From Escherichia phage PC3, in the sequence record ON184125: a DNA stretch of 64,000 nt, one strand, 5' to 3'. The notes beneath the pieces were generated by a model. The model was given only the letters and a program-made list of their open reading frames with translations, had not been told where the DNA came from and made no database searches. This document shows, one piece after another, positions 7,523-44,034 of the stretch (the first letter of the stretch is position 1; every line of letters starts with the position of its first letter). Made by a program: the position numbers and the translations under genes.

Positions 7523-9031
7523 ATGGCAGACATTCAGATTGTTAAGGTTAACGAAGTCCGCATGCGTTGCATCGCAGATCTTTCTATCAGGGAAGAACTT
7601 AATGACTACTTCAAATTCGAAGACCCGAACTTCGTTCCCAACCCCTTCTCTAAATGGGACGGGGTTGTCCGCCTATTTACCAAGTCATCTGGTCTAATCG
7701 ATATCGGTCTGCTGTTTGAGGTATTTAAGTTCTGTAAGAACAACGGATACACCATTGAACTGGATCCGGCACTGAAGTACATTCAGGACATCCCAGATGA
7801 AGAAATCCGTGAATTCATCGACAGTCTGCATCCAAAGATCCGTACCGAAAATCACGAATATATCGATGCCGAGACTCGTGACTACCAGTACGACACCATC
7901 GCCAAGGCTATGCGTCAAACCAGATGCGTCTGTGAACTGGCTACGAGTGCCGGTAAGTCCTTTATTCTGTATGTCATGGCGCGGTACTACAGGCGGCGCA
8001 GAGAAGCTCTCGAAAGTCCTCTGAAGACGCTTATCGTGGTGCCGTCAATCCACCTAGTCACTCAGCTGTACGACAACTTCGAAGAGTATGCGCATGGCAG
8101 TGATTGGAAGCCCGTTGTTAACACCCAGCTGATTTTTGAGGGCGCGACAAAGGAGATCAGCAAACCAATCGTCATCAGCACATGGCAAGGCATTCAAGAC
8201 CAGCCGAAGGAATGGTTCCACCAGTTCGGTGATATCGTGGTGGATGAAGTGCACACCTCCAAGTCTGAGAAACTGTCTTACATCCTAAACAACTGCATCT
8301 ATGCCGACCAGCGCCTGGGGGTTACAGGTACGCTGGCGAATACCAAAGTTGCCGGGCTTCAGGTGGTGGCTCACTTCGGGGCGTACCATAAGATCATCAC
8401 GGCTCGCGATCTCATCAATCTCGGGTACGCCACTGACATCAAAGTGAAGATGATTCAGCTGAAGCACACTCCGGCGGATGCTGTTGGTCTGGACGGGGAT
8501 TATTCCAAGGAAATAGAATACCTCATTACACACCAGTCCCGCAACGAACTGATCGCCAAGATGGCACTGAATCTGAAAGGAAACGTGGCCATCATGTTCG
8601 AGCGTATTGATGGTCACATGATGGTCGTGTATGATATGCTGAGCGCAGTCAAGCCCAACGTGTTTGTCATCAACGGGGAAGTGAAGATCGAAGACCGCCG
8701 CCGCATACAGAAAGCGATGGAGGATGGAGAGGACATCACCCTGTTGGCATCATACGGGACAATGCAGCAGGGAGTGTCGATCAAGAAGCTACACCACCTT
8801 GTACTGGCACACCCGAGCAAGTCATATATCCGCGTCATACAGACATTGGGTCGTCTGATGCGTCAGCACTCCTCTAAGGACGTCGCGTGGATATGGGACT
8901 TAGTGGATGATGCATCGTACAACGCCAGCACGAACCACACTCTTAGGCACTCTCACGAGCGTTACAAGTTTTACCTGGCAGAGCGCCACCCCGTGGAGTT
9001 CATGAAGGTGGCGCTGGGTAATCACGATTAA
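7523..9031 (+). CDS. uvsW: SF2 DNA helicase, UvsW-like
   Basis: Walker A TSAGKSF, DEVH box, further SF2 motifs; ORF 7430-9031 trimmed to ATG after GGGAG. Confidence 0.6.
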   Translation: MADIQIVKVNEVRMRCIADLSIREELNDYFKFEDPNFVPNPFSKWDGVVRLFTKSSGLIDIGLLFEVFKFCKNNGYTIELDPALKYIQDIPDEEIREFIDSLHPKIRTENHEYIDAETRDYQYDTIAKAMRQTRCVCELATSAGKSFILYVMARYYRRRREALESPLKTLIVVPSIHLVTQLYDNFEEYAHGSDWKPVVNTQLIFEGATKEISKPIVISTWQGIQDQPKEWFHQFGDIVVDEVHTSKSEKLSYILNNCIYADQRLGVTGTLANTKVAGLQVVAHFGAYHKIITARDLINLGYATDIKVKMIQLKHTPADAVGLDGDYSKEIEYLITHQSRNELIAKMALNLKGNVAIMFERIDGHMMVVYDMLSAVKPNVFVINGEVKIEDRRRIQKAMEDGEDITLLASYGTMQQGVSIKKLHHLVLAHPSKSYIRVIQTLGRLMRQHSSKDVAWIWDLVDDASYNASTNHTLRHSHERYKFYLAERHPVEFMKVALGNHD

Positions 9032-9399
9032 TCTTGATTCACATAGGCGGGGGTGGCCTCGCCTTCATCAGCTACTACACCGAACAATTTGTCCAGAGAA
9101 GCCAGACATTGTGCGTTCAGGTGTTCACTGATCGTATCCTTCAGCATTTGTTCGCTGTTCAATTGGAATGGCAGAACCTTCGCTTCGATGCCGTTTTCAA
9201 ACGTCACAACGCCAACATACAGACCAACTTTCAGACCTGTCATCAAGCCAAGGGGGACAAATCGCGGCTCCGATGGTAAGTGCTTGTCTGACGCCAGCTG
9301 TGTCAGATAAACTGGGGTGCCTGTGATAAATTGACCTGTGGTGAGGTTGGCGTCTGGCTTACTACACCCGACTGCGTATAATCCTACGAACTGTTTCAT
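9028..9399 (-). CDS. Hypothetical protein (123 aa)
   Basis: Minus-strand ORF with GAGAG SD-like sequence; convergent with helicase gene. Confidence 0.45.
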   Translation of the reverse strand: MKQFVGLYAVGCSKPDANLTTGQFITGTPVYLTQLASDKHLPSEPRFVPLGLMTGLKVGLYVGVVTFENGIEAKVLPFQLNSEQMLKDTISEHLNAQCLASLDKLFGVVADEGEATPAYVNQD

Positions 9400-12582: not shown

Positions 12583-12680
12583 TTCAAACTATTGTAAAAG
12601 GGGAATGAGTCATGGCGCGTAATACGCTAGACATATTGAATATTTCAGCAGTCAACGATGAGGCCAGCATCGTTGATTGT

Positions 12681-13076
12681 ATGGTTGAAGTTCAATTGAA
12701 CCAAGATCGGCCAGGTATATTCCTGGGGATCAAGGAAACACTGAGTCGAATTGGGGTAAACACGCGCCAAGAGCCGAATACTCTGTATCAGACTTGCCAT
12801 ATTCTTCATAAGTGTGGCAAGTATTATATCGTCCACTTTAAGCATCTATTTATGCTGGACGGGCATTACAACGGATTTAACCGCGAAGATGTCCTGAGGA
12901 TGAACCGAATCATCAAGCTGCTGGAGCAGTGGAACATGGTGAAGGTCATTCATCCTGAGCAGGTCACCGAAGCAGCCGATATGTCTCGCATTAAAGTGGT
13001 TAAACACGATCAGGTTCCTGAATGGAAACTGGTTCCAAAATACATCATCCGGCCTACGAAGGCAAAAAGCGAATAA
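12681..13076 (+). CDS. regA: Translational repressor RegA
   Basis: YQTCHILHKCGKYYIVHFK ... EWKLVPKYIIRP closely matches T4 RegA; start chosen by alignment, the upstream ATG at 12612 is an alternative. Confidence 0.7.
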   Translation: MVEVQLNQDRPGIFLGIKETLSRIGVNTRQEPNTLYQTCHILHKCGKYYIVHFKHLFMLDGHYNGFNREDVLRMNRIIKLLEQWNMVKVIHPEQVTEAADMSRIKVVKHDQVPEWKLVPKYIIRPTKAKSE

Positions 13077-15368: not shown

Positions 15369-17387
15369 ATGTCAGATTTTAAGCCCTTCGCAGTAGCTGT
15401 CAACAATAACGTGCTGGCCATGTCAGCAACTGGTCTGTTCATGACCAACATCGATAAAGATGCTCTGTGGGATCTGTATCTGTCTTCTTTCCCTGCTGGC
15501 ACTAACCCGCTTTATCGTGAGCGTACCGAGCACGACTGCACCTGCTGTAAACAATTCATCCGTAACATCGGCGGTGTGGTCACCATCGACTCCGACCTGA
15601 ACGTGATCTCTATCTGGGATAACATTCAGCTGGGTAACGAATACGACGTTGTCGCTGCGGCGCTGTCAGCATATGTTAAGCAGCACGCAATCGTCGACGT
15701 GTACTTCAACGACACCAAGAAAGTTGGTGTTGAGTCGAATCACGAAATGAAAGACGGTATTGTCCGCACCTACAACCACTTCCACACCGACCTGCTGGGT
15801 AGCTATGTTCTGCGGGCAGATACCATCGCTTCTAAGAAGGGTGAAATCCGCCAGGCGATTGAAGTGTTTGAGCGCGGCCTGCGTGAACTGTCTCTGGAAT
15901 CGGCTGAAATCGTTCTTGAATTGATTGACCAGAATTCTCTGTATCGCGGTGAAGAGCACAAAGCGGCAGTGCAGGCGTTCGTGGTGAACAAGACCCTGTA
16001 CGAACAAACTGCAGAAGAGAAACGCGCTCTGTGGGCTTGGCGCACTGGCTACCGTGCAAACGGTCATACCCCTCACGGCATTCGTAATACCGTGATTGGC
16101 TCTCTGCTGGTAGACCTCAATGAAGGTCGGGATCTGGAAACCGCCGTGAAGTCCTTTGAAGCCAAAGTCGCTCCGACGAACTACAAGCGCCCAACCGCGC
16201 TGGTCACGAAGTCGATGATTGAAAACGCGCAGAAAGAAGTCGAAGCACTGGGTCTGACTGATTCACTGGGTCGCCGTTATGCCGTGTATGACGATCTGAC
16301 CATCAACAACGTTCTGTTCGCCGACCTAGCAGCTCAGAAGAAGATGGACCCGTTTGCTCAGCTGGCGTCTGAAGTGAAGACTCCGACCAAGTCCCTGGAC
16401 AAGGTTGAAGAGATCACGATCGACGACTTCCTGACCAACGTGTTGCCAAAGGCGCATTCCCTGGAAGTGCTGGTCGAAAACTCTCACATTGGCAACCTGA
16501 TGTCCCTGATCGCTCCGGCCACCGCAGGCGCTCCTAACCTGTTCAAGTGGAACAACGGCTTCAGCTGGTCGTACAATGGCGAAGTGGCCGACTCCATCAA
16601 AGAGCGCGTGAAGACCGCAGGCGGCAATGTCGACAGCTTCCTCCGTGTGTCACTGGCTTGGCATAACAACGACGACCTGGATCTGAGCCTGAACGATCCT
16701 CTTCACAACCACGTGTATTATCACAACCGTCGTTCGACAACTGGCGCAACTCTAGACATCGACATGAACGGTATGGACGGCATTGATCCAAACCGCCGTC
16801 CGGTGGAGAACATCTTCTTCAGCGATGAACGCAAGCTGCGTGATGGTCTGTACGAGTTCTATGTCACTAACTTCAGCCAGCGTGAAACCTGTGATATGGG
16901 ATTCGAAATCGAAGTTGAATACAAAGGCCAGACCAAGCGTTTTTCGCATCCTGGCCTGAAGCACAAAGATCGCACTCTGGCTGTTGTGATTGATGTCCGC
17001 GCTGGACAAGTGGTAGACATCCGTTCTACCCTGAAAGACGACGCTCGCTCTCAGGAAATCTGGGGCATCAAGACCTCCGTCTTCCAGAAGGTACAGCTGG
17101 TTCTGAACTCACCAAACCATTGGGACGGCGAGCAGACTGGCAACAAGCACGTGTTCTTCATCCTGGAAGGTTGTGTTAACCCTGTCGGCACCCGTGGTTT
17201 CTATAACGAATATCTGAAGCCGGAACTTGATAAACACCGCAAGGTTTTTGAAATGTTAGGCAGTAAGATTAAAGTACAGCCAAGCACTGAGCAGCTGTCC
17301 GGTCTGGGCTTCTCTACCACCCAACGCAACCACGTGTTCGTGAAGGTGAGCGGTTCTTTCAACCGCACTGTGAAAGTTGTGTTCTAA
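15369..17387 (+). CDS. Hypothetical large protein (672 aa)
   Basis: Long ORF with AGGAAG + attacatcATG context; no motif I can assign. Confidence 0.55.
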   Translation: MSDFKPFAVAVNNNVLAMSATGLFMTNIDKDALWDLYLSSFPAGTNPLYRERTEHDCTCCKQFIRNIGGVVTIDSDLNVISIWDNIQLGNEYDVVAAALSAYVKQHAIVDVYFNDTKKVGVESNHEMKDGIVRTYNHFHTDLLGSYVLRADTIASKKGEIRQAIEVFERGLRELSLESAEIVLELIDQNSLYRGEEHKAAVQAFVVNKTLYEQTAEEKRALWAWRTGYRANGHTPHGIRNTVIGSLLVDLNEGRDLETAVKSFEAKVAPTNYKRPTALVTKSMIENAQKEVEALGLTDSLGRRYAVYDDLTINNVLFADLAAQKKMDPFAQLASEVKTPTKSLDKVEEITIDDFLTNVLPKAHSLEVLVENSHIGNLMSLIAPATAGAPNLFKWNNGFSWSYNGEVADSIKERVKTAGGNVDSFLRVSLAWHNNDDLDLSLNDPLHNHVYYHNRRSTTGATLDIDMNGMDGIDPNRRPVENIFFSDERKLRDGLYEFYVTNFSQRETCDMGFEIEVEYKGQTKRFSHPGLKHKDRTLAVVIDVRAGQVVDIRSTLKDDARSQEIWGIKTSVFQKVQLVLNSPNHWDGEQTGNKHVFFILEGCVNPVGTRGFYNEYLKPELDKHRKVFEMLGSKIKVQPSTEQLSGLGFSTTQRNHVFVKVSGSFNRTVKVVF

Positions 17388-21681: not shown

Positions 21682-22005
21682 ATGAGCAGTAAACCAACAT
21701 ATGTTGAAGTCATGCGTCATCTGGCTCAGTACGCCACTGACAATCTGAATATGGATCTGTGGCGTGACGATGACAAGCGCAAATTGCTGGACGACGTGGC
21801 ATCTCAGAACGAGGACGCCCTGGACAAGCTGGCTGGTCTCCGTACCAAGAAAGACCTCGGCGGTGACGAACTGGATGCCATCGAAATCGTAATGGAACTA
21901 GAAGAAGAGTTTCAGGTCGAAATCGACGACGGGTGGCTAGGTAGTAAAGGCGATGACCCGACCATGGGTGAACTCGCTGAACTCGTGGTTGCCCTGCGCA
22001 AATAA
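21682..22005 (+). CDS. Acyl-carrier-protein-like four-helix protein lacking the phosphopantetheinylation serine
   Basis: DLGGDELDAIEIVMELEEEFQVEIDD parallels ACP [20 protein letters not shown] but has DEL in place of DSL. Confidence 0.5.
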   Translation: MSSKPTYVEVMRHLAQYATDNLNMDLWRDDDKRKLLDDVASQNEDALDKLAGLRTKKDLGGDELDAIEIVMELEEEFQVEIDDGWLGSKGDDPTMGELAELVVALRK

Positions 22006-22040: not shown

Positions 22041-22127
22041 TTAGGGGTTTACTTCCTCTAAGGAATGTCCTATTATTCAATAACTGGCGAACGATGGGTT
22101 CACCGGGTTGAAAGGTAAGATTATATC

Positions 22128-22367
22128 ATGAAGAACAAAATGGTCGAAACTTCAGTAGAGATTGATCGCAATTGGGGATTGCTCCGCGCTAAAGGGTTCC
22201 GTCGTGTGTATGCGACCAAAGAAGTCTACGCACAGCGCCGTGACGTTATCATCAGCAAGAAAGGCAAAGAGTGGGTTGCTGAAGAAGTTGATGTCGAGAC
22301 AGGCATCGTAGGAAAGGTAAAGGCCAAGGCCGTGATCCTCTTCGCTCTTCTGAAGCACATCAGTTAA
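22128..22367 (+). CDS. Hypothetical small protein (79 aa)
   Basis: ORF with ttatatcATG context. Confidence 0.4.
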   Translation: MKNKMVETSVEIDRNWGLLRAKGFRRVYATKEVYAQRRDVIISKKGKEWVAEEVDVETGIVGKVKAKAVILFALLKHIS

Positions 22368-22426: not shown

Positions 22427-22801
22427 ATGAAAAAGTTAATCCTCGCTGTTGCCCTGCTGGGCGCTTCCTTTGCTGCTGTTTCCGCCCCTCCTGTCATCAC
22501 CGGAGTGTCTACCAACGGTGTTTATGCTTTCAAGGCGTATGGCCAAGACCTCGTTCTGTATAAGAACGGGAAGATGATTGAGCGCTGCGTATCAGACGAC
22601 GTGAATCGTGGGATCGACAATCAGGGTAGCCCATACGTCCTGGACATCTATTCCTGCTCCAACGGGACGAAGTCCTTTGGCGTCAAGACCTTTGGCAACG
22701 TCGCCGACGGTGGCTGGGGCTTCATGTTCGAAACCCGCAACCACCACCCGGTCAAGACCATGCAAGAAGAGTTCTTGATCTCTGTCGGGGGTACGTTATG
22801 A
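22427..22801 (+). CDS. Secreted/periplasmic small protein (N-terminal signal peptide)
   Basis: MKKLILAVALLGASFAAVSA signal-peptide-like N-terminus; ORF 22406-22801 trimmed to ctatatcATG. Confidence 0.5.
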   Translation: MKKLILAVALLGASFAAVSAPPVITGVSTNGVYAFKAYGQDLVLYKNGKMIERCVSDDVNRGIDNQGSPYVLDIYSCSNGTKSFGVKTFGNVADGGWGFMFETRNHHPVKTMQEEFLISVGGTL

Positions 22802-23085
22802 CACCATCAGAGAGAAGTTCTATCAAGGAGATGATCAGAGACAAGGCGTGTGTTGGTCATACTCAGTCAGAGAACATCTTGCGCCTGATGGTAATAAAGA
22901 ACGATATCGACAACAGCCGATTCCAAACAGCGTTGTATGGCATGCTGGAGTTTATATCGCGGTCATCTGATCTTGGCACGGTCCGATATCTTGACGATCT
23001 TACCAAGCTGCTGAACACGGGCGGGGAAACTTTCGACACCGCTCGTATCCTGATTGACGGTAGACCTGAAGAAGACGAGGTATAA
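22798..23085 (+). CDS. Hypothetical protein (95 aa)
   Basis: ATGA overlap with upstream gene. Confidence 0.4.
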   Translation: MTPSERSSIKEMIRDKACVGHTQSENILRLMVIKNDIDNSRFQTALYGMLEFISRSSDLGTVRYLDDLTKLLNTGGETFDTARILIDGRPEEDEV

Positions 23086-23086
23086 T

Positions 23087-23245
23087 TTGGATAAAGAATT
23101 GGTTTGGGAAATTGTGAAGGGTGTCCTAGTAATAATCGCGGTGGTTTTCATCTTGGGTGGGAACTTCTTCTATTGGTTATTCCGATCCGACCAGAAACGT
23201 CGCGAACGCAAGGAGAAAGAGAGAAAGGATCGATGGATGCGCTAA
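23087..23245 (+). CDS. Possible small single-pass membrane protein
   Basis: Hydrophobic VLVIIAVVFILGGNFFYWLF followed by RERKEKERK; start codon uncertain (TTG or GTG). Confidence 0.25.
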   Translation: MDKELVWEIVKGVLVIIAVVFILGGNFFYWLFRSDQKRRERKEKERKDRWMR

Positions 23246-23277
23246 CTAAGGGATAACCCTATATCCCGAGGTGTGTC

Positions 23278-23727
23278 ATGTTCCTTACATCCTTTATTGA
23301 CTGGTTGAACATCATTAACGGCCTGAGGATCCCTGTTGGGAACCTCGGGCTTTCGCGTTCTTCTATGCCACAAATCGATGCCGACAAACAAGAAGATTTT
23401 CACAAATATCTTGAAGACAACGGCGTGTCCATAGATGCTGTACAAGTGCCCATCAAAATGCTTCGTCTCACCCAGAACGAAATCAACAAGATGAAGGTCT
23501 GGAAGATCATGAAGAACATCAGAAATAAGAAACCTATGGGTCGAGTTTGGGTGTCTTCTGACAATTACGTTGTTGACGGTTCTCACCGATTTGTCGCTGC
23601 GTTGAACATGGACGGCAAACAGCGCATGAAGGTCTACAAAGTTGATTTGCCAGCGATGGAATTTGTTAAACTCGCTAAACAGTTTCAGGGTGTGCGATAC
23701 AGAACGGTCAGCGATACTCGTTTCTGA
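23278..23727 (+). CDS. ParB-like nuclease domain (ParBc/Srx-like) protein
   Basis: VVDGSHRFVAA matches the ParB-like DGxHRxxA signature; GAGG SD. Confidence 0.5.
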   Translation: MFLTSFIDWLNIINGLRIPVGNLGLSRSSMPQIDADKQEDFHKYLEDNGVSIDAVQVPIKMLRLTQNEINKMKVWKIMKNIRNKKPMGRVWVSSDNYVVDGSHRFVAALNMDGKQRMKVYKVDLPAMEFVKLAKQFQGVRYRTVSDTRF

Positions 23728-23806
23728 ATACGATAGTTTATTGAATCCCTTTACTCATCATGGTGAGCCGCCTATCATTTCATCCAATGAAATAAGGAGA
23801 ATCACC

Positions 23807-24493
23807 ATGAAACGTTTAATCCTCGGGGTTGTGCTGGCTGGTCTGGCATTACCCGCCGCTACCAAGCTGAATTCCACAGGTGATAAACTGTGGTCTGACC
23901 TTTCCTATTGTGCTGGGTTCTCCCAGGCGGTTGCCATCGACAAGTCTGGTTCCATAGAGAACTTCGCTGAACTCTGGAACACAGGCAACGTCTCCACTGC
24001 TGTCATCAATGCCGGAATTGAGTTCAACCGTTACAAACAGGGAGCCTATAACCTCAAAGGCTACCTCAATGACGACGAATTTAACCGTGGAGGCATGGAG
24101 GCTGGCGATTTGATCATGACTGGGCGTATGGGCACCCAAGGCCGAATGACCGTAAGACAGTGCCGTTCGCTCCCTTCTCCGGCATTACAGAAGGGTGTGC
24201 AGGTTGGTCGCCGCCACCTGAACCTTATCAACGATGGCAACCAGTGCATCAAAGTATTCGAATACAGCGCTACGCAGACCTCTGATCGCGTCCTGAAGAA
24301 GGAATGGCGCACCCGCGCTCTTGGTCTCAGAGCCTGGCTGGTTGAGAACGATTATTACTTTGAAGACAGGGTTCAGAACGGTCTGAAAGACCTGGCCACG
24401 AATCTGAGCGTGAACCTTGATGATCCCCGCATGTCGCGCGAACTCCAGCAGACTCGTGTTGACTGCGACAATATGATGAAGGAGAACGAGTGA
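23807..24493 (+). CDS. Secreted protein (signal peptide), unknown function
   Basis: MKRLILGVVLAGLALPAATK signal peptide; AAGGAGA SD; ORF 23642-24493 trimmed. Confidence 0.5.
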   Translation: MKRLILGVVLAGLALPAATKLNSTGDKLWSDLSYCAGFSQAVAIDKSGSIENFAELWNTGNVSTAVINAGIEFNRYKQGAYNLKGYLNDDEFNRGGMEAGDLIMTGRMGTQGRMTVRQCRSLPSPALQKGVQVGRRHLNLINDGNQCIKVFEYSATQTSDRVLKKEWRTRALGLRAWLVENDYYFEDRVQNGLKDLATNLSVNLDDPRMSRELQQTRVDCDNMMKENE

Positions 24494-24819
24494 TGAAATG
24501 TAAAATCCTGCTCTTGTTGGTACTGATAGCCGGGTGTGTAAATGCCGCGCCACCGTCTAAACTGAACACATGTGTGGCATGGATGGAGACGTATCAGCAG
24601 TTCCACCCAGATGACAAAGACACATCTATCCTCCTGTCCGACTTCGAGGGGGAGCTGAAGCGCCTTGATCTGTTCAGTGTTGATCAGATAGAGAATGCGC
24701 TGGATCTTCCCATGATGCTGACTGCGGCTGATAACAGTCCACAAACGAAGAAAGACCTGATGTATTGCCGGGGAATTGCCCAGGACTTTGTCGGATTTCA
24801 AAATAAAGTTTCGGGTTAA
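24493..24819 (+). CDS. Putative lipoprotein (lipobox LIAGC)
   Basis: MKCKILLLLVLIAGCVNA signal peptide with lipobox cysteine; start overlaps upstream stop. Confidence 0.5.
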   Translation: MKCKILLLLVLIAGCVNAAPPSKLNTCVAWMETYQQFHPDDKDTSILLSDFEGELKRLDLFSVDQIENALDLPMMLTAADNSPQTKKDLMYCRGIAQDFVGFQNKVSG

Positions 24820-24858: not shown

Positions 24859-25725
24859 ATGCTCCTGACCAAAACAATCGCTGCGGCGATTATCGAAAAG
24901 AATAAGGCTTTTGCCCCCAACGCAGCCAAAGTTATGTTGGTACACGAAGACGCTCGCGTGATCTTCGCCGAGAAGTTCGAGATGGGCGCGAAGTTCTGGT
25001 ATGCCGACAACTTACGTGAGAGCAAACTTCAGGGTATCATCCACAAACTGACTCTGGTCGCCAAGCGTAATGACCAGGGTGACTGGGTCGGCGTTTCTGA
25101 CTTCAGTACGAAGATCACCCCAAAGGCTCCGCTTTCTCGTCAAGAGCGCATTCTGGAAGCCCAGGAAAAGCTGCGTGCGGCTCGGAGTACCCCAAAGGCG
25201 AAACCAGATGCAAGCCCTGTCATCAAGCCAGCGGTTGTTCCTAAGTCCAAATACCTCCCGCCCGTGAGTCAAAAGGCTGTGGAGCAATTGGTCGAGAAGC
25301 GCAAGGGTGACGTTGTGATGAAGTCTGACTCTTCAGTGGAGTCGTTCAAGCCGGATCCAGCAGAAGTACAGGCGCTAGCAGAAAAGGTAAAGAATTCACA
25401 ATTCATTTCCCTGCGTGAACTTGAACCGCCTACTCGCCGTCGTGTCGCCAACGAGCTGTTTGTGTCGTTCAGGTCGGATGGCAAGATCGTCCTGTGCAAA
25501 GCCCTGCGCGATGCAATCCCTTGGACAACTCTGAACATGATGGTCACTCGCGACTTCAAGCGTTTTGGTATCATGCAAGGCAAGGACTACAACGTGAACC
25601 AGAGTGGGACTTATGTCAATCGCGCCATGTGCTCTAAGCTGTCATTCCCTGAAGATACCGGAACGATCCGTGTCGTTCTGAATTGGGATGACAATCTGAA
25701 CATGTATGTTGGCGATTTCCAATAA
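24859..25725 (+). CDS. Hypothetical protein (288 aa)
   Basis: ORF with AAGGA SD; Lys/Pro-rich central linker. Confidence 0.5.
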   Translation: MLLTKTIAAAIIEKNKAFAPNAAKVMLVHEDARVIFAEKFEMGAKFWYADNLRESKLQGIIHKLTLVAKRNDQGDWVGVSDFSTKITPKAPLSRQERILEAQEKLRAARSTPKAKPDASPVIKPAVVPKSKYLPPVSQKAVEQLVEKRKGDVVMKSDSSVESFKPDPAEVQALAEKVKNSQFISLRELEPPTRRRVANELFVSFRSDGKIVLCKALRDAIPWTTLNMMVTRDFKRFGIMQGKDYNVNQSGTYVNRAMCSKLSFPEDTGTIRVVLNWDDNLNMYVGDFQ

Positions 25726-25781
25726 TCAATAACCTCGGGCGGCTTATCATAAAGCTGCCCTTTCATTTGAGTGACTATATC

Positions 25782-26444
25782 ATGGAAAAACTTTATTCTA
25801 TTATCGTCGGTCCTGATCCTGACGGATTATTCTTCGCCCCGTTGTCTTATATTGCCCACGCCCGTATCGGTAGCCATTACGCATATTGCACACGTGGCCA
25901 CGACGGTTCCAATATCCTCCATTATAGCCGCCTGAACGATTTCCTGGCACTTCAACCAGAAGATGTTGTGCTGGCGCGTCGCGTGTTCATCGACTTCAAC
26001 GCGATGCACAACAACGAAATCGACGCTCGCTATCATGCCATGCGTTCTATGGAAGGGGGAGACTGCATTTATCGTATCGACCATTTTAGTGAGTTTACCG
26101 AATGTATTGATTGGTTTATCTCTGATAAAGTGATGGGTGAAAGAATCGTCACAACTTCGTGGGTACATGCGGAACAACTTCGTGTGTCTACCGATGCATA
26201 CAAAGAAGTCGAAAATCTGTGCAACAAGTTCCGCATCTCGGTGGCCTGTAATCAAGACCTGGGCGAAGAGATACAATGGACAGCTGAGTCTCCTCATTTC
26301 AGTGGCCTGGTGATGACGGCCGAAACCCGTTCCCGTGCTGTTGTCCAGTTAGTACTCTGGGCGTTCTACCAGCGCACCCCGTTCTCATACATGGGACAGA
26401 AAGAGATTGATGAACTCCTGAAGTCTCACGCGGTGGAGGTGTGA
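25782..26444 (+). CDS. Hypothetical protein (220 aa)
   Basis: ORF 25767-26444 trimmed to ctatatcATG. Confidence 0.45.
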   Translation: MEKLYSIIVGPDPDGLFFAPLSYIAHARIGSHYAYCTRGHDGSNILHYSRLNDFLALQPEDVVLARRVFIDFNAMHNNEIDARYHAMRSMEGGDCIYRIDHFSEFTECIDWFISDKVMGERIVTTSWVHAEQLRVSTDAYKEVENLCNKFRISVACNQDLGEEIQWTAESPHFSGLVMTAETRSRAVVQLVLWAFYQRTPFSYMGQKEIDELLKSHAVEV

Positions 26445-26445
26445 C

Positions 26446-26730
26446 ATGGCTGGCGTATGGTGTGATGTCTTGCTGGTTCGTTACAGCGTAAATGGGTGTG
26501 CCCAAGTGCGTTCCGCCTTCTATCCAGTACCGTTCTCCTCTGGTGGCCTGACGGTTCAGCGAGTTCTCGATATTGAGGCAGAACTGAACAAACGATCTTG
26601 GGGTGTGCGTGGTGTACAAGTCCTGGGGTACGATCTTCTGAACGAAATGTTGATCGATGAAGATCGTGTAGAAACGATTATTTCCCGGACAGACATGGAA
26701 TCATTCATCTCTAAAGGAAACACCCAATAA
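26446..26730 (+). CDS. Hypothetical protein (94 aa)
   Basis: ORF after GGAGG, abutting upstream stop. Confidence 0.4.
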   Translation: MAGVWCDVLLVRYSVNGCAQVRSAFYPVPFSSGGLTVQRVLDIEAELNKRSWGVRGVQVLGYDLLNEMLIDEDRVETIISRTDMESFISKGNTQ

Positions 26731-26820: not shown

Positions 26821-27099
26821 ATGAATCGTACTGAATTTGTTGCCCACATTGCTTCGACCCAGAATATCACCAAAGGCGAAGCGGAGAAAGTAGTGGCATC
26901 CTTTATCGACGGTGTTAAAACTGCAGTTGCTGCAGGCGCATCTGTACAGCTGGTTGGCTTCGGTGCGTTCGAAGTGAAACACCAAGAAGCGCGTGAAGGT
27001 CGCAACCCTCTGAACGGCCAGACCATTCAGATCGCGGCGAAAAACGTTGTGAAATTCAAAGTGGGCGAAGGTCTGAAGAACGCTGCCAACGGCAAGTAA
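26821..27099 (+). CDS. HU/IHF-family DNA-binding protein
   Basis: 92 aa with HU hallmarks: MNRTEF..., GFGAFEV, REGRNPLNGQTIQI arm, KFKVG. Confidence 0.85.
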   Translation: MNRTEFVAHIASTQNITKGEAEKVVASFIDGVKTAVAAGASVQLVGFGAFEVKHQEAREGRNPLNGQTIQIAAKNVVKFKVGEGLKNAANGK

Positions 27100-41942: not shown

Positions 41943-42085
41943 AATACTTCAAAAATAATTTTTTAAAAATTATTGAAAAAGACTTTACTCTTCAATAATG
42001 ATGCACTATTATAGTTCACATAGGGCGGCAACACACCGCCGAATGAAAAGTGAAACGCACCAACTACATTATGAGGAATTACATC

Positions 42086-43203: not shown

Positions 43204-43242
43204 TAAATACCTCTGCATTCATTGTGGAGGTATTTTCTTATG
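43204..43242 (+). promoter_or_regulatory. Hairpin cassette at endolysin start: TAAATA-containing 5' arm, SD-containing 3' arm (GGAGGTATTTTCTTATG)
   Basis: Stem aaatacctc/gaggtattt; same architecture as 4295-4331 and resembles T4 gene e early/late translational control. Confidence 0.45.
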
Positions 43243-44034
43243 GCCATTCTAAAACTTGGCAACCGTGGCACTGAAGTGAAGGCACTCCAGGATAGCCTCA
43301 ACAAAATCGGCTTCACCCTCGTCGCTGATGGTATCTTTGGCAAGGCAACAGAGAACGCCGTCAAGACTGTTCAGGCGGGTGCGGGGCTTGTCATTGATGG
43401 TATCGTGGGTCCAAAGACCTCCTATGCTATTCGCAACGCCGGAGACGCCCATCAGGATCATCTAACTGAGTCAGACCTGATTGATGCTGCTAACGATCTG
43501 GGTGTTGACCTTGCCTCTGTCAAGGCGGTGAATCAGGTTGAGTCGCGCGGCACGGGCTTCACCAAGTCAGGTAAGATCAAGACATTATTTGAGCGCCACA
43601 TCATGTATAAGAAGCTGATGGCGAAGTTCGGACAGGCTCGGGCGAATGCCATGGGGCATATGTACCCGACGTTGGTCAACCCTTCTGCAGGCGGGTACAC
43701 GGGCGGCGACGCGGAGTTGGATCGACTTCATGCGGCCATCAACATCGATGAGGATTGTGCGTACGAGAGCGCCTCTTACGGTCTCTTCCAGATCATGGGA
43801 TTCAACTGCCAGGTCTGTGGATATGCCAACGCCAAGGAGATGTTCAACGACTTCCTGACAGGAGAACGTGCTCATTTGATGGCATTCGTGAAGTTCATCA
43901 AGGCCGACGCCAAGCTCTGGCAGGCTCTGAAGGACAAGAACTGGTCTGAATTTGCGCGGCGCTATAATGGTCCAGCGTATGCCAAGAACCAGTACGACAA
44001 GAAGCTCGCAGCAGCATACAAGAGTTTCAGTTAA
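43240..44034 (+). CDS. Endolysin: N-terminal peptidoglycan-binding domain plus muramidase-like catalytic domain
   Basis: LKLGNRGTEVKALQDSLNKIGF ... DGIFGKATENAVK PG-binding repeat; C-terminal domain resembles phage N-acetylmuramidase family. Confidence 0.7.
   Translation: MAILKLGNRGTEVKALQDSLNKIGFTLVADGIFGKATENAVKTVQAGAGLVIDGIVGPKTSYAIRNAGDAHQDHLTESDLIDAANDLGVDLASVKAVNQVESRGTGFTKSGKIKTLFERHIMYKKLMAKFGQARANAMGHMYPTLVNPSAGGYTGGDAELDRLHAAINIDEDCAYESASYGLFQIMGFNCQVCGYANAKEMFNDFLTGERAHLMAFVKFIKADAKLWQALKDKNWSEFARRYNGPAYAKNQYDKKLAAAYKSFS

Follow-up and report, generated by a model that had tools for sequence, protein, structure and literature searches.

The adjoining genes F and G of Escherichia phage PH4, whose orthologues elsewhere in the Ackermannviridae are labelled as a spanin, are predicted here to encode two exported periplasmic proteins, and our main result is a correction: on comparison of their sequences, the Ackermannviridae 'spanin' appears to lack two of the topological features that define spanins. 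The stretch of DNA analysed (the window; 64,000 nucleotides, presented as Escherichia phage PC3, ON184125) has 100% identity with positions 32001-96000 of the PH4 record (ON184126.1; Ackermannviridae, Aglimvirinae), and positions are those of the window unless the PH4 record is named. F and G belong to a series of + strand genes, lettered A to J, between the acyl carrier protein (ACP) gene (21682-22005) and the HU gene (26821-27099). The spanin labels are already known, from phage Marshall, SpaninDB, RefSeq and PHROGs.

We consider it very probable that F and G are both periplasmic, and probable that the pair is not a spanin. Signal peptides and lipoboxes were called using the -3,-1 rule, the length of the hydrophobic (h) region and comparison of homologues, and the sorting of G was predicted using the Lol rule.

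Spanin annotation of F and G

The F and G orthologues of the Salmonella phage Marshall are annotated as inner-membrane (i-) and outer-membrane (o-) spanin, respectively, and have been entered in SpaninDB. RefSeq and PHROGs (phrog_3843, the family to which G belongs) describe G as an 'Rz-like spanin', and a recent table of the Vi01-like core genome repeats both labels. The Marshall annotation was the product of a student genomics course, and was bioinformatic, without experiment. In SpaninDB, the Marshall pair has 300 periplasmic residues, making it the longest of 528 systems; its i-spanin has 0 coiled coils and 35% helix, and its o-spanin has 56% helix (Kongari et al., 2018; PMC6139136). The same paper includes ten sister phages in its list of phages that are spanin-less: RC-2014, PhaxI, CBA120, ECML-4, SJ2, Maynard, Vi01, SFP10, SJ3 and AG3. 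Maynard G is identical to Marshall G, and Maynard F is identical to Marshall F over the first 40 residues (the extent compared). The one positive call in SpaninDB is therefore at odds with the remainder of its curation, Maynard being listed as spanin-less. The label appears to have spread by homology transfer, and since every G homologue found is from the Ackermannviridae, the phrog_3843 label looks circular.

If the label were correct, F and G would form a separated two-component spanin, with F held in the inner membrane by an N-terminal segment that is not cleaved and G as outer-membrane lipoprotein, bridging the periplasm and fusing or disrupting the outer membrane at lysis. Several features agree with this. 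The genes of a spanin pair are adjacent, overlapping or embedded, and F and G are adjacent and translationally coupled; F has an N-terminal hydrophobic segment; both proteins have periplasmic cysteines, as is often the case in spanins; and G of PH4, Marshall and Maynard has a good lipobox whose +2 residue is not Asp. The existing entries in SpaninDB and phrog_3843 are on the same side, as is the result of a genome-wide search described below. The export signals of the two proteins point the other way.

Export signal and predicted structure of F

The F protein begins MKR-LILGVVLAGLAL-PAAT/K (here and below a slash marks the predicted cleavage site), that is, with MKR as its n-region and an h-region of just 12 residues. 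Its homologues have a conserved Pro at -4 followed by AxA, with Ala at -1 in at least 90% of the aligned sequences (LPAxA/K). Homologues at 25-35% identity have unrelated yet canonical signal peptides (STSAWS/E, FHASA/A, STANA/G, TAHA/T, YANA/E, NAQA/R and PVHA/R), and canonical AxA signal peptides with polar c-regions are found in all the distant homologues (P0068, P0069, P0075, P0077-79 and Bue1). On the basis of the -3,-1 rule and the length of the h-region, F is predicted to be a secreted soluble protein rather than a membrane-anchored one. By definition an i-spanin stays in the inner membrane as a type II protein, its N-terminal transmembrane domain (TMD) not being cleaved; by rule and by comparison, the N-terminal segment of F is predicted to be cleaved.

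Mature F is approximately 23.6 kDa and contains four invariant cysteines. C35 and C220 are kept in the short versions of F (123-174 residues) found in 3M-like and Bue1-like phages, which retain just the N-terminal helical domain and the C-terminal helix. The AlphaFold2 model has helices of no more than 25 residues and a β hairpin, and is of low confidence (predicted local distance difference test, pLDDT, of 55). F has no relatives in Pfam, NCBIfam, PADLOC or the PDB. A profile search of 1.84 billion representative proteins gave 11 matches, all from Ackermannviridae-type phages or fragments with the exception of P0076 (E 6e-4), a marginal match with repetitive sequence which we took to be spurious.

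We note that in Salmonella phage 38 (SP38_132/133; P0030, P0070) the F orthologue is split into open reading frames (ORFs) of 162 and 73 residues. This is either a frameshift or a sequencing error; if it is real, F is dispensable for plaque formation.

Lipobox and predicted structure of G

G of PH4 begins MKCKILLLLVLIAG-C15-VN, giving the lipobox I-A-G-C; its +2 residue is Val rather than Asp, and the same sequence L-I-A-G-C15-V-N is present in Marshall and Maynard. By the Lol rule PH4 G would go to the outer membrane, and in PH4 it thus has the predicted character of an o-spanin, which is an outer-membrane lipoprotein without a Lol-avoidance signal.

If the lipid anchor were needed for function, the lipoprotein signal should also be conserved among orthologues, and this is not true of G. 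Of 37 clusters of G sequences at 90% identity, 6 have the lipobox Cys (49 of the 205 member sequences); it is missing from the other 31 clusters and from most genera. At the DNA level it is found in 3 of 19 IMG/VR loci, in which the start codon is fixed by a conserved GAAGGAG ribosome-binding site. The Cys is absent from Det7 gp52, PhaxI gp100, Bue1 gp093, Serratia phage 3M and two metagenomic lineages (L027 and L032), all of which have AxA/xP sites instead; the Det7, PhaxI and Bue1 proteins are labelled 'Rz-like spanin' despite their Cys-less signal peptides. P0037, from the same clade as the lipobox form of G, has Ser at the position of the Cys, and the lipobox allele itself still keeps the sequence VNA/AP. 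Because of this retention, and because the lipobox is restricted to one allele lineage, we provisionally read it as derived. In most orthologues, G is therefore predicted to be a soluble periplasmic protein, and a soluble G would be unable to anchor to the outer membrane.

Mature G is approximately 10 kDa and acidic (pI 4.4), with two invariant cysteines. AlphaFold2 predicts it to be a compact helical bundle (pLDDT 74; predicted template modelling score, pTM, 0.68), and fold searches gave no informative match. Spanins typically, although not obligatorily, have periplasmic domains suited to bridging, with a helical coiled coil in the i-spanin and an o-spanin that is short and mostly without structure. 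The pair does not look like this: no coiled coil is predicted for F, G is predicted to be compact, and their combined length makes them an outlier in SpaninDB.

The F, G and H proteins of PH4 are 98-99% identical to those of Marshall (L002, L010), while the flanking ACP, B, C and E proteins are 68-84% identical. This mosaic pattern suggests a recent recombinational exchange, between genera, of an F-G-H cassette carrying the lipobox allele.

With a 12-residue hydrophobic core ahead of a conserved AxA in F, textbook cleavable signal peptides in all its distant homologues, a G lipobox that is missing from most of the family, and a label that was assigned without experiment and that is contradicted by its own source for ten sister phages, we regard a spanin function for F-G as improbable.

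Search for other lysis proteins

An alternative spanin was sought using a six-frame scan for lipobox ORFs in the whole 155,895-bp genome together with a TMD scan of the annotated coding sequences (CDS). This gave no other candidate and no unimolecular (u-) spanin, so that the 155.9-kb genome has no second pairing of a membrane protein with a lipoprotein. The other credible lipoprotein, PH4_000177, was rejected as it has neither a membrane-protein neighbour nor a C-terminal TMD. It lies at 138726-139067 (-) of the PH4 record (L006:38726-39067), wedged between the deoxyribonucleotidase and DNA polymerase genes, and encodes a Cys-rich protein of 113 residues (phrog_3748) that begins MKLNKILLVCALAFSTTAC/S. 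PH4_000039 (9028-9399, - strand; 123 residues; phrog_4255), between the helicase and sliding-clamp genes, has a very short and weak lipobox-like N-terminus, MKQFVGLYAVGC/S.

PH4_000007 (16022-16360 (+) of the PH4 record, L004; 112 residues; phrog_3961) lies in the late tail/baseplate region. It has a short N-terminus and one 20-residue TMD, followed by approximately 80 C-terminal residues that are heptad-rich and apparently coiled-coil. This topology is much nearer to that of an i-spanin or class III holin than is the topology of F, and there is no overlapping or following lipobox ORF. Gene D, a small membrane protein close to F (Table 1), was considered as the missing holin and rejected: it matches Pfam Phage_holin_2_4 with 14.3 bits against a cut-off of 30, and it is absent from most relatives, being found in only 9 of 23 loci.

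Conservation of the F-G pair

In every lineage examined the stop codon of F overlaps the start codon of G, by 1 or 4 nucleotides (TGATG or ATGA). The F-G family is confined to Ackermannviridae that infect Enterobacterales, where it occurs in 281 phage records. No sequence or fold relative with a known function was found for F or G. No family in Pfam, NCBIfam or PADLOC was matched by B, C, E, F or G, and D gave sub-threshold noise only; in PHROGs the matches were to orphan families made up of the proteins' own orthologues. A search of the Ackermannviridae literature yielded no usable transcriptomics or functional work on the genes of the cluster.

Related loci were surveyed using tblastn of the PH4 proteins against 23 loci, covering Kuttervirus, the Limestone/Agtrevirus type, the Klebsiella-phage type, Serratia phage 3M and one metagenomic lineage. 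E, F and G are present in 23 of the 23, and no other genes are always present. E, which has no export signal, is the best conserved gene of the neighbourhood (69-100% identity in these loci) and is also found in Bue1 and in metagenomic lineage L032. It belongs to phrog_2859, with a weak match to a ParB-like PHROG, and carries the motifs LRLTQNE and DGSHRF. We note that E directly precedes F-G in every lineage examined, the most distant included, which places a cytoplasmic nuclease-like protein next to two periplasmic ones.

In other Ackermannviridae (L032:6028-7028, L030:2412-3191 and L003:8005-9322), the genes downstream of G include a small protein with two TMDs and an SPFH/Band_7 lipoprotein (LLLTGC/G or LLLAGC/G), and phage pertopsoe has there a gene annotated as 'superinfection exclusion protein'. 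These downstream envelope genes are not present in PH4. This locus appears to be one at which envelope-targeted accessory genes accumulate.

Organization of the region

The four ORFs B, D, F and G coincide with GenBank CDS PH4_000055, 57, 59 and 60 (Table 1), and had been described by a first-pass annotation, made from the window's sequence, as a cluster of exported proteins. The individual predictions in that annotation are borne out. B and F have classical signal peptides with n-, h- and c-regions and, in their homologues, signal peptidase I-type sites; the lipobox LIAGC of G is valid, with its Cys at position 15 in PH4; and D is a candidate single-pass membrane protein, having a 20-residue hydrophobic segment and a basic C-terminal tail. 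The exported ORFs therefore exist, but they do not make up one functional cluster, because B and D are variable, while E-F-G is a conserved unit.

Table 1. Genes and candidate transcription signals discussed in the text (window coordinates).
Feature	Position	Strand	Description
Promoter candidate, sigma70-like, TTTACT-N17-TATTAT	22048-22076	+	Upstream of A, after a terminator-like hairpin 3' of the ACP gene
Gene A	22128-22367	+	
Gene B, PH4_000055, 124 aa	22427-22801	+	Sec-exported periplasmic (predicted); two conserved Cys; accessory
Gene C, 95 aa	22798-23085	+	No export signal; ATGA overlap with end of B; abuts D
Gene D, 52 aa, TTG start	23087-23245	+	Single-pass inner-membrane protein (predicted); accessory
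Gene E, 149 aa	23278-23727	+	ParB/Srx-like domain; no export signal
Promoter candidate, sigma70-like, TTTACT-N17-TATCAT	23750-23778	+	E-F intergenic gap, 29 nt upstream of F start codon
Gene F, PH4_000059, 228 aa	23807-24493	+	Sec signal peptide 1-19, then 209-aa soluble periplasmic part (predicted)
Gene G, PH4_000060, 108 aa	24493-24819	+	Predicted lipoprotein in PH4 (Cys15); start overlaps F stop (TGATG)
Gene H	24859-25725	+	
Intrinsic-terminator-like hairpin	25737-25760	+	After H; 9-bp stem, 6 GC pairs, T-rich tail
Gene I	25782-26444	+	
Gene J	26446-26730	+	
Promoter candidate, sigma70-like, TTTACT-N17-TAYNAT class	41984-42012	+	Intergenic
Endolysin, PG_binding_1 + N-acetylmuramidase	43240-44034		18.4 kb away from the cluster

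The B protein starts MKKLILAVALLGASFAAVSA, followed by the cleavage site and then PP, and its orthologues (48-54% identity) end their signal peptides with SFAAHA/D or SFAAQA/D, which are classical signal peptidase I sites. B belongs to phrog_5474 and C to phrog_4458, both PHROGs of unknown function. B is found in 104 phage records but in only 12 of the 23 loci, and C is variable, with identities of 30-98% across loci and absence from some. D has a 12-residue N-terminus ahead of its hydrophobic segment and a highly basic C-terminal tail (pI 10.1), for which the positive-inside rule predicts an N-out/C-in topology; it belongs to phrog_14464, 'membrane protein'. The start position is shared by its orthologues, with TTG, ATG or GTG as the codon, and this favours D being a real gene.

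Could the four exported or membrane ORFs nevertheless act together as a single cassette for superinfection exclusion or receptor masking? A classical n/h/c signal peptide is found in just 4 of the 190 annotated CDS of the genome, and three of these four lie within this 2.4 kb. However, F and G are one coupled unit, and the clustering to be explained is therefore only that of B near F-G, for which a rough p is about 0.2 and not significant. B-C-D are translationally coupled to one another, as are F and G through the TGATG overlap, but the two groups have separate promoter-like and terminator-like signals, and are set apart by gene E, whose ParB-like product is cytoplasmic, together with a gap of 80 bp that contains a promoter-like site. 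A and B carry a start-codon motif (described below) that is not found at F or G, and B and D are absent from 11 and 14 of the 23 loci, respectively, all of which contain F-G. We therefore regard a single cassette as very improbable. The region is a variable accessory patch (B, C and D) beside a conserved module (E-F-G), and B and D are separate, dispensable accessory genes.

Transcription signals and a start-codon motif

The sequence TTTACT-N17-TAYNAT occurs three times in the window compared to 0.04 expected, and all three occurrences are intergenic, on the + strand and upstream of + strand genes. At the site before F both hexamers are kept in Kuttervirus and Klebsiella-phage-type loci (with -10 TATCAT or TACTAT), while the spacer varies. 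No terminator-like site was found between G and H, and F, G and H are probably transcribed as one unit that ends at the strong hairpin after H. The T4-type late-promoter motif TATAAATA occurs three times in the window, none of them near the cluster, and CTAAATA-type motifs are not found near it either.

The 9-mer TATATCATG occurs eight times in the window compared to 0.34 expected (at 2436, 11147, 22122, 22421, 25776, 29750, 36736 and 49147, all on the + strand), often with TTGAAA and a purine-rich stretch before it. Its ATG is the annotated start codon in seven of the eight cases, including genes A, B and I. Relatives from IMG/VR, as well as Marshall, Maynard and pertopsoe, keep the motif at the starts of A and B. 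A translational operator is one possible role, given that the phage encodes a RegA-like translational repressor (12612-13076); a shared leader is another.

Possible functions of F-G

F and G are strictly coupled and occur together, and their mature parts are strongly conserved while their signal peptides vary freely; this suggests that they form a stoichiometric complex in the periplasm and act on a specific target. We propose that F and G would be exported by Sec and their signal peptides removed, to give disulfide-bonded periplasmic proteins, and that F (approximately 23.6 kDa, four Cys) and G (approximately 10 kDa, two Cys) probably form a complex. Transcription from the host-type sigma70-like promoter would probably place their expression in early or middle infection. 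In the lineage of PH4, Marshall and Maynard only, the signal peptide of G would have been remodelled to a lipobox, tethering G at the inner face of the outer membrane. The complex may then control superinfection at the envelope, by binding a component exposed to the periplasm, either from a phage that is entering or competing, or from the machinery that times lysis; in PH4, the tether on G would place the complex where the tail tip enters. By analogy with Spackle and RI of T4, a superinfection-type role is the single most likely function for F-G, although we put it forward only tentatively. The explanation taken as a whole, namely a coupled periplasmic pair that is not a spanin, a guess at superinfection control, and B and D as separate genes, seems to us evenly poised between right and wrong.

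The first-pass annotation had also preferred superinfection exclusion to lysis, giving as its reason the distance from the endolysin. The preference for a role other than lysis is supported by the cleavable signal peptide predicted for F and by the limitation of the G lipobox to one lineage, but distance is a weak argument, since the lysis genes of T4-like phages are scattered.

A number of points weigh against our proposal. F of PH4 has Thr at -1, giving a weaker site than the Ala of its relatives does, and cleavage of both signal peptides is predicted from rules and from comparison. Because the model of F has such a low pLDDT, the statement that it lacks a coiled coil rests mainly on the Pepcoil result in SpaninDB. 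Neither F nor G resembles any known exclusion protein (Spackle, RI, Sim, Llp and Cor included) in sequence or fold, so that the proposed function is an analogy. The promoter pattern would fit early or middle transcription by the host RNA polymerase, and this is also compatible with a role in lysis; the T4 spanin genes are not known to be late genes either. Finally, PH4 has no recognised holin and no other candidate spanin that might account for the disruption of its outer membrane, which leaves room for F-G to act in lysis.

A different explanation for the same observations is that F-G is a periplasmic host-takeover factor whose action does not concern other phages. It might inhibit or sequester an envelope component specific to Enterobacterales (for example a protease or peptidoglycan hydrolase, a sensor of envelope stress, or a step in polysaccharide export), and in this way keep the infected envelope intact or suppress defence. 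The restriction of the family to Ackermannviridae of Enterobacterales (281 phage records, 11 of 1.84 billion representatives) is in agreement with this, as are conserved mature proteins with variable signal peptides, which are expected with a specific partner, and apparent expression from a sigma70-like promoter. The neighbouring loci of relatives, with their SPFH/Band_7 lipoprotein, 2-TMD protein and 'superinfection exclusion protein', can be read in the same way. There is however no homology or fold match to any target, and there are no PADLOC hits. We rank host takeover as unlikely in absolute terms, yet nearly as likely as the superinfection role.

F-G might alternatively be a new, family-specific periplasmic two-protein module whose function has no precedent in the Ackermannviridae, providing either a new form of superinfection control or a spanin-independent means of outer-membrane disruption or lysis timing. 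The lysis version of this idea arises because these phages, of approximately 155 kb, have no recognisable holin and, if our analysis is right, no spanin. We consider such a module doubtful.

Implications for annotation

Phage therapy and biocontrol make wide use of Ackermannviridae phages (Vi01, CBA120, Det7, LIMEstone and the Agtrevirus phages). The RefSeq and PHROGs label 'Rz-like spanin' is attached to G in many of the 281 phage records that contain it, and F is named 'i-spanin' in UniRef and in a number of GenBank entries. The spanin label is a propagated error if both proteins are soluble and periplasmic. In that case the family has no identified holin or spanin, making its lysis pathway a testable question, and the conserved, coupled and secreted pair become candidates for a new envelope-level interaction between phages or between phage and host. 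In practical terms the benefit is modest, consisting of a corrected annotation and a well-defined target for experiments.

Comparison with known systems

In common with two-component spanins (lambda Rz/Rz1, and the separated PseT.3/PseT.2 of T4), F and G have adjacent coupled genes, an N-terminal hydrophobic segment in F, cysteines on the periplasmic side in both proteins and, in PH4, Marshall and Maynard, a G lipobox without Asp at +2. They differ in that the segment of F is predicted to be a short cleavable signal peptide and not a type II anchor, and in that no coiled coil is predicted for F. An o-spanin is typically short, unstructured and Pro-rich, while G is predicted to fold as a helical bundle of 90 residues; the lipobox of G is not conserved, and the pair lies 18 kb from the endolysin.

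The outer-membrane lipoproteins Llp of T5 and Cor of T1 and phi80 are exclusion factors, and G of PH4 resembles them as a predicted small outer-membrane lipoprotein of a virulent phage. It differs in having no homology to them (PHROGs, Pfam, NCBIfam and PADLOC), and in that the lipid anchor is dispensable across the F-G family. Moreover, the Ackermannviridae adsorb via tailspikes to O-antigen or capsule, and are not known to use a protein receptor that a lipoprotein could plug. Sim of P1 is a periplasmic protein of approximately 25 kDa whose signal peptide is processed and which blocks DNA entry. F is similar to it in size and export route, but has no PHROG or Pfam link to it, and Sim comes from a temperate phage and acts alone.

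To our knowledge, no soluble periplasmic proteins other than Spackle and RI have been described in T4-like virulent phages. RI of T4 is an antiholin and a periplasmic superinfection sensor, which binds the periplasmic domain of the holin T. Like F and G it is a small, exported, helical periplasmic protein, and the Ackermannviridae also have rIIA/rIIB. Unlike RI, F and G form a coupled pair, there is no homology, and no holin, of the T type or any other, has been recognised in the Ackermannviridae.

Spackle (gp61.3) of T4 is a periplasmic inhibitor of the gp5 tail lysozyme of superinfecting phage. Neither F nor G is homologous to gp61.3 in sequence or fold. A baseplate hub subunit with tail lysozyme is listed, together with rIIA/rIIB, in the Vi01-like core genome, and PH4 has an annotated RIIB gene. 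What F and G share with Spackle is that they are small, helical periplasmic proteins predicted to be exported by Sec, from a T4-like virulent myovirus, and encoded among replication genes.

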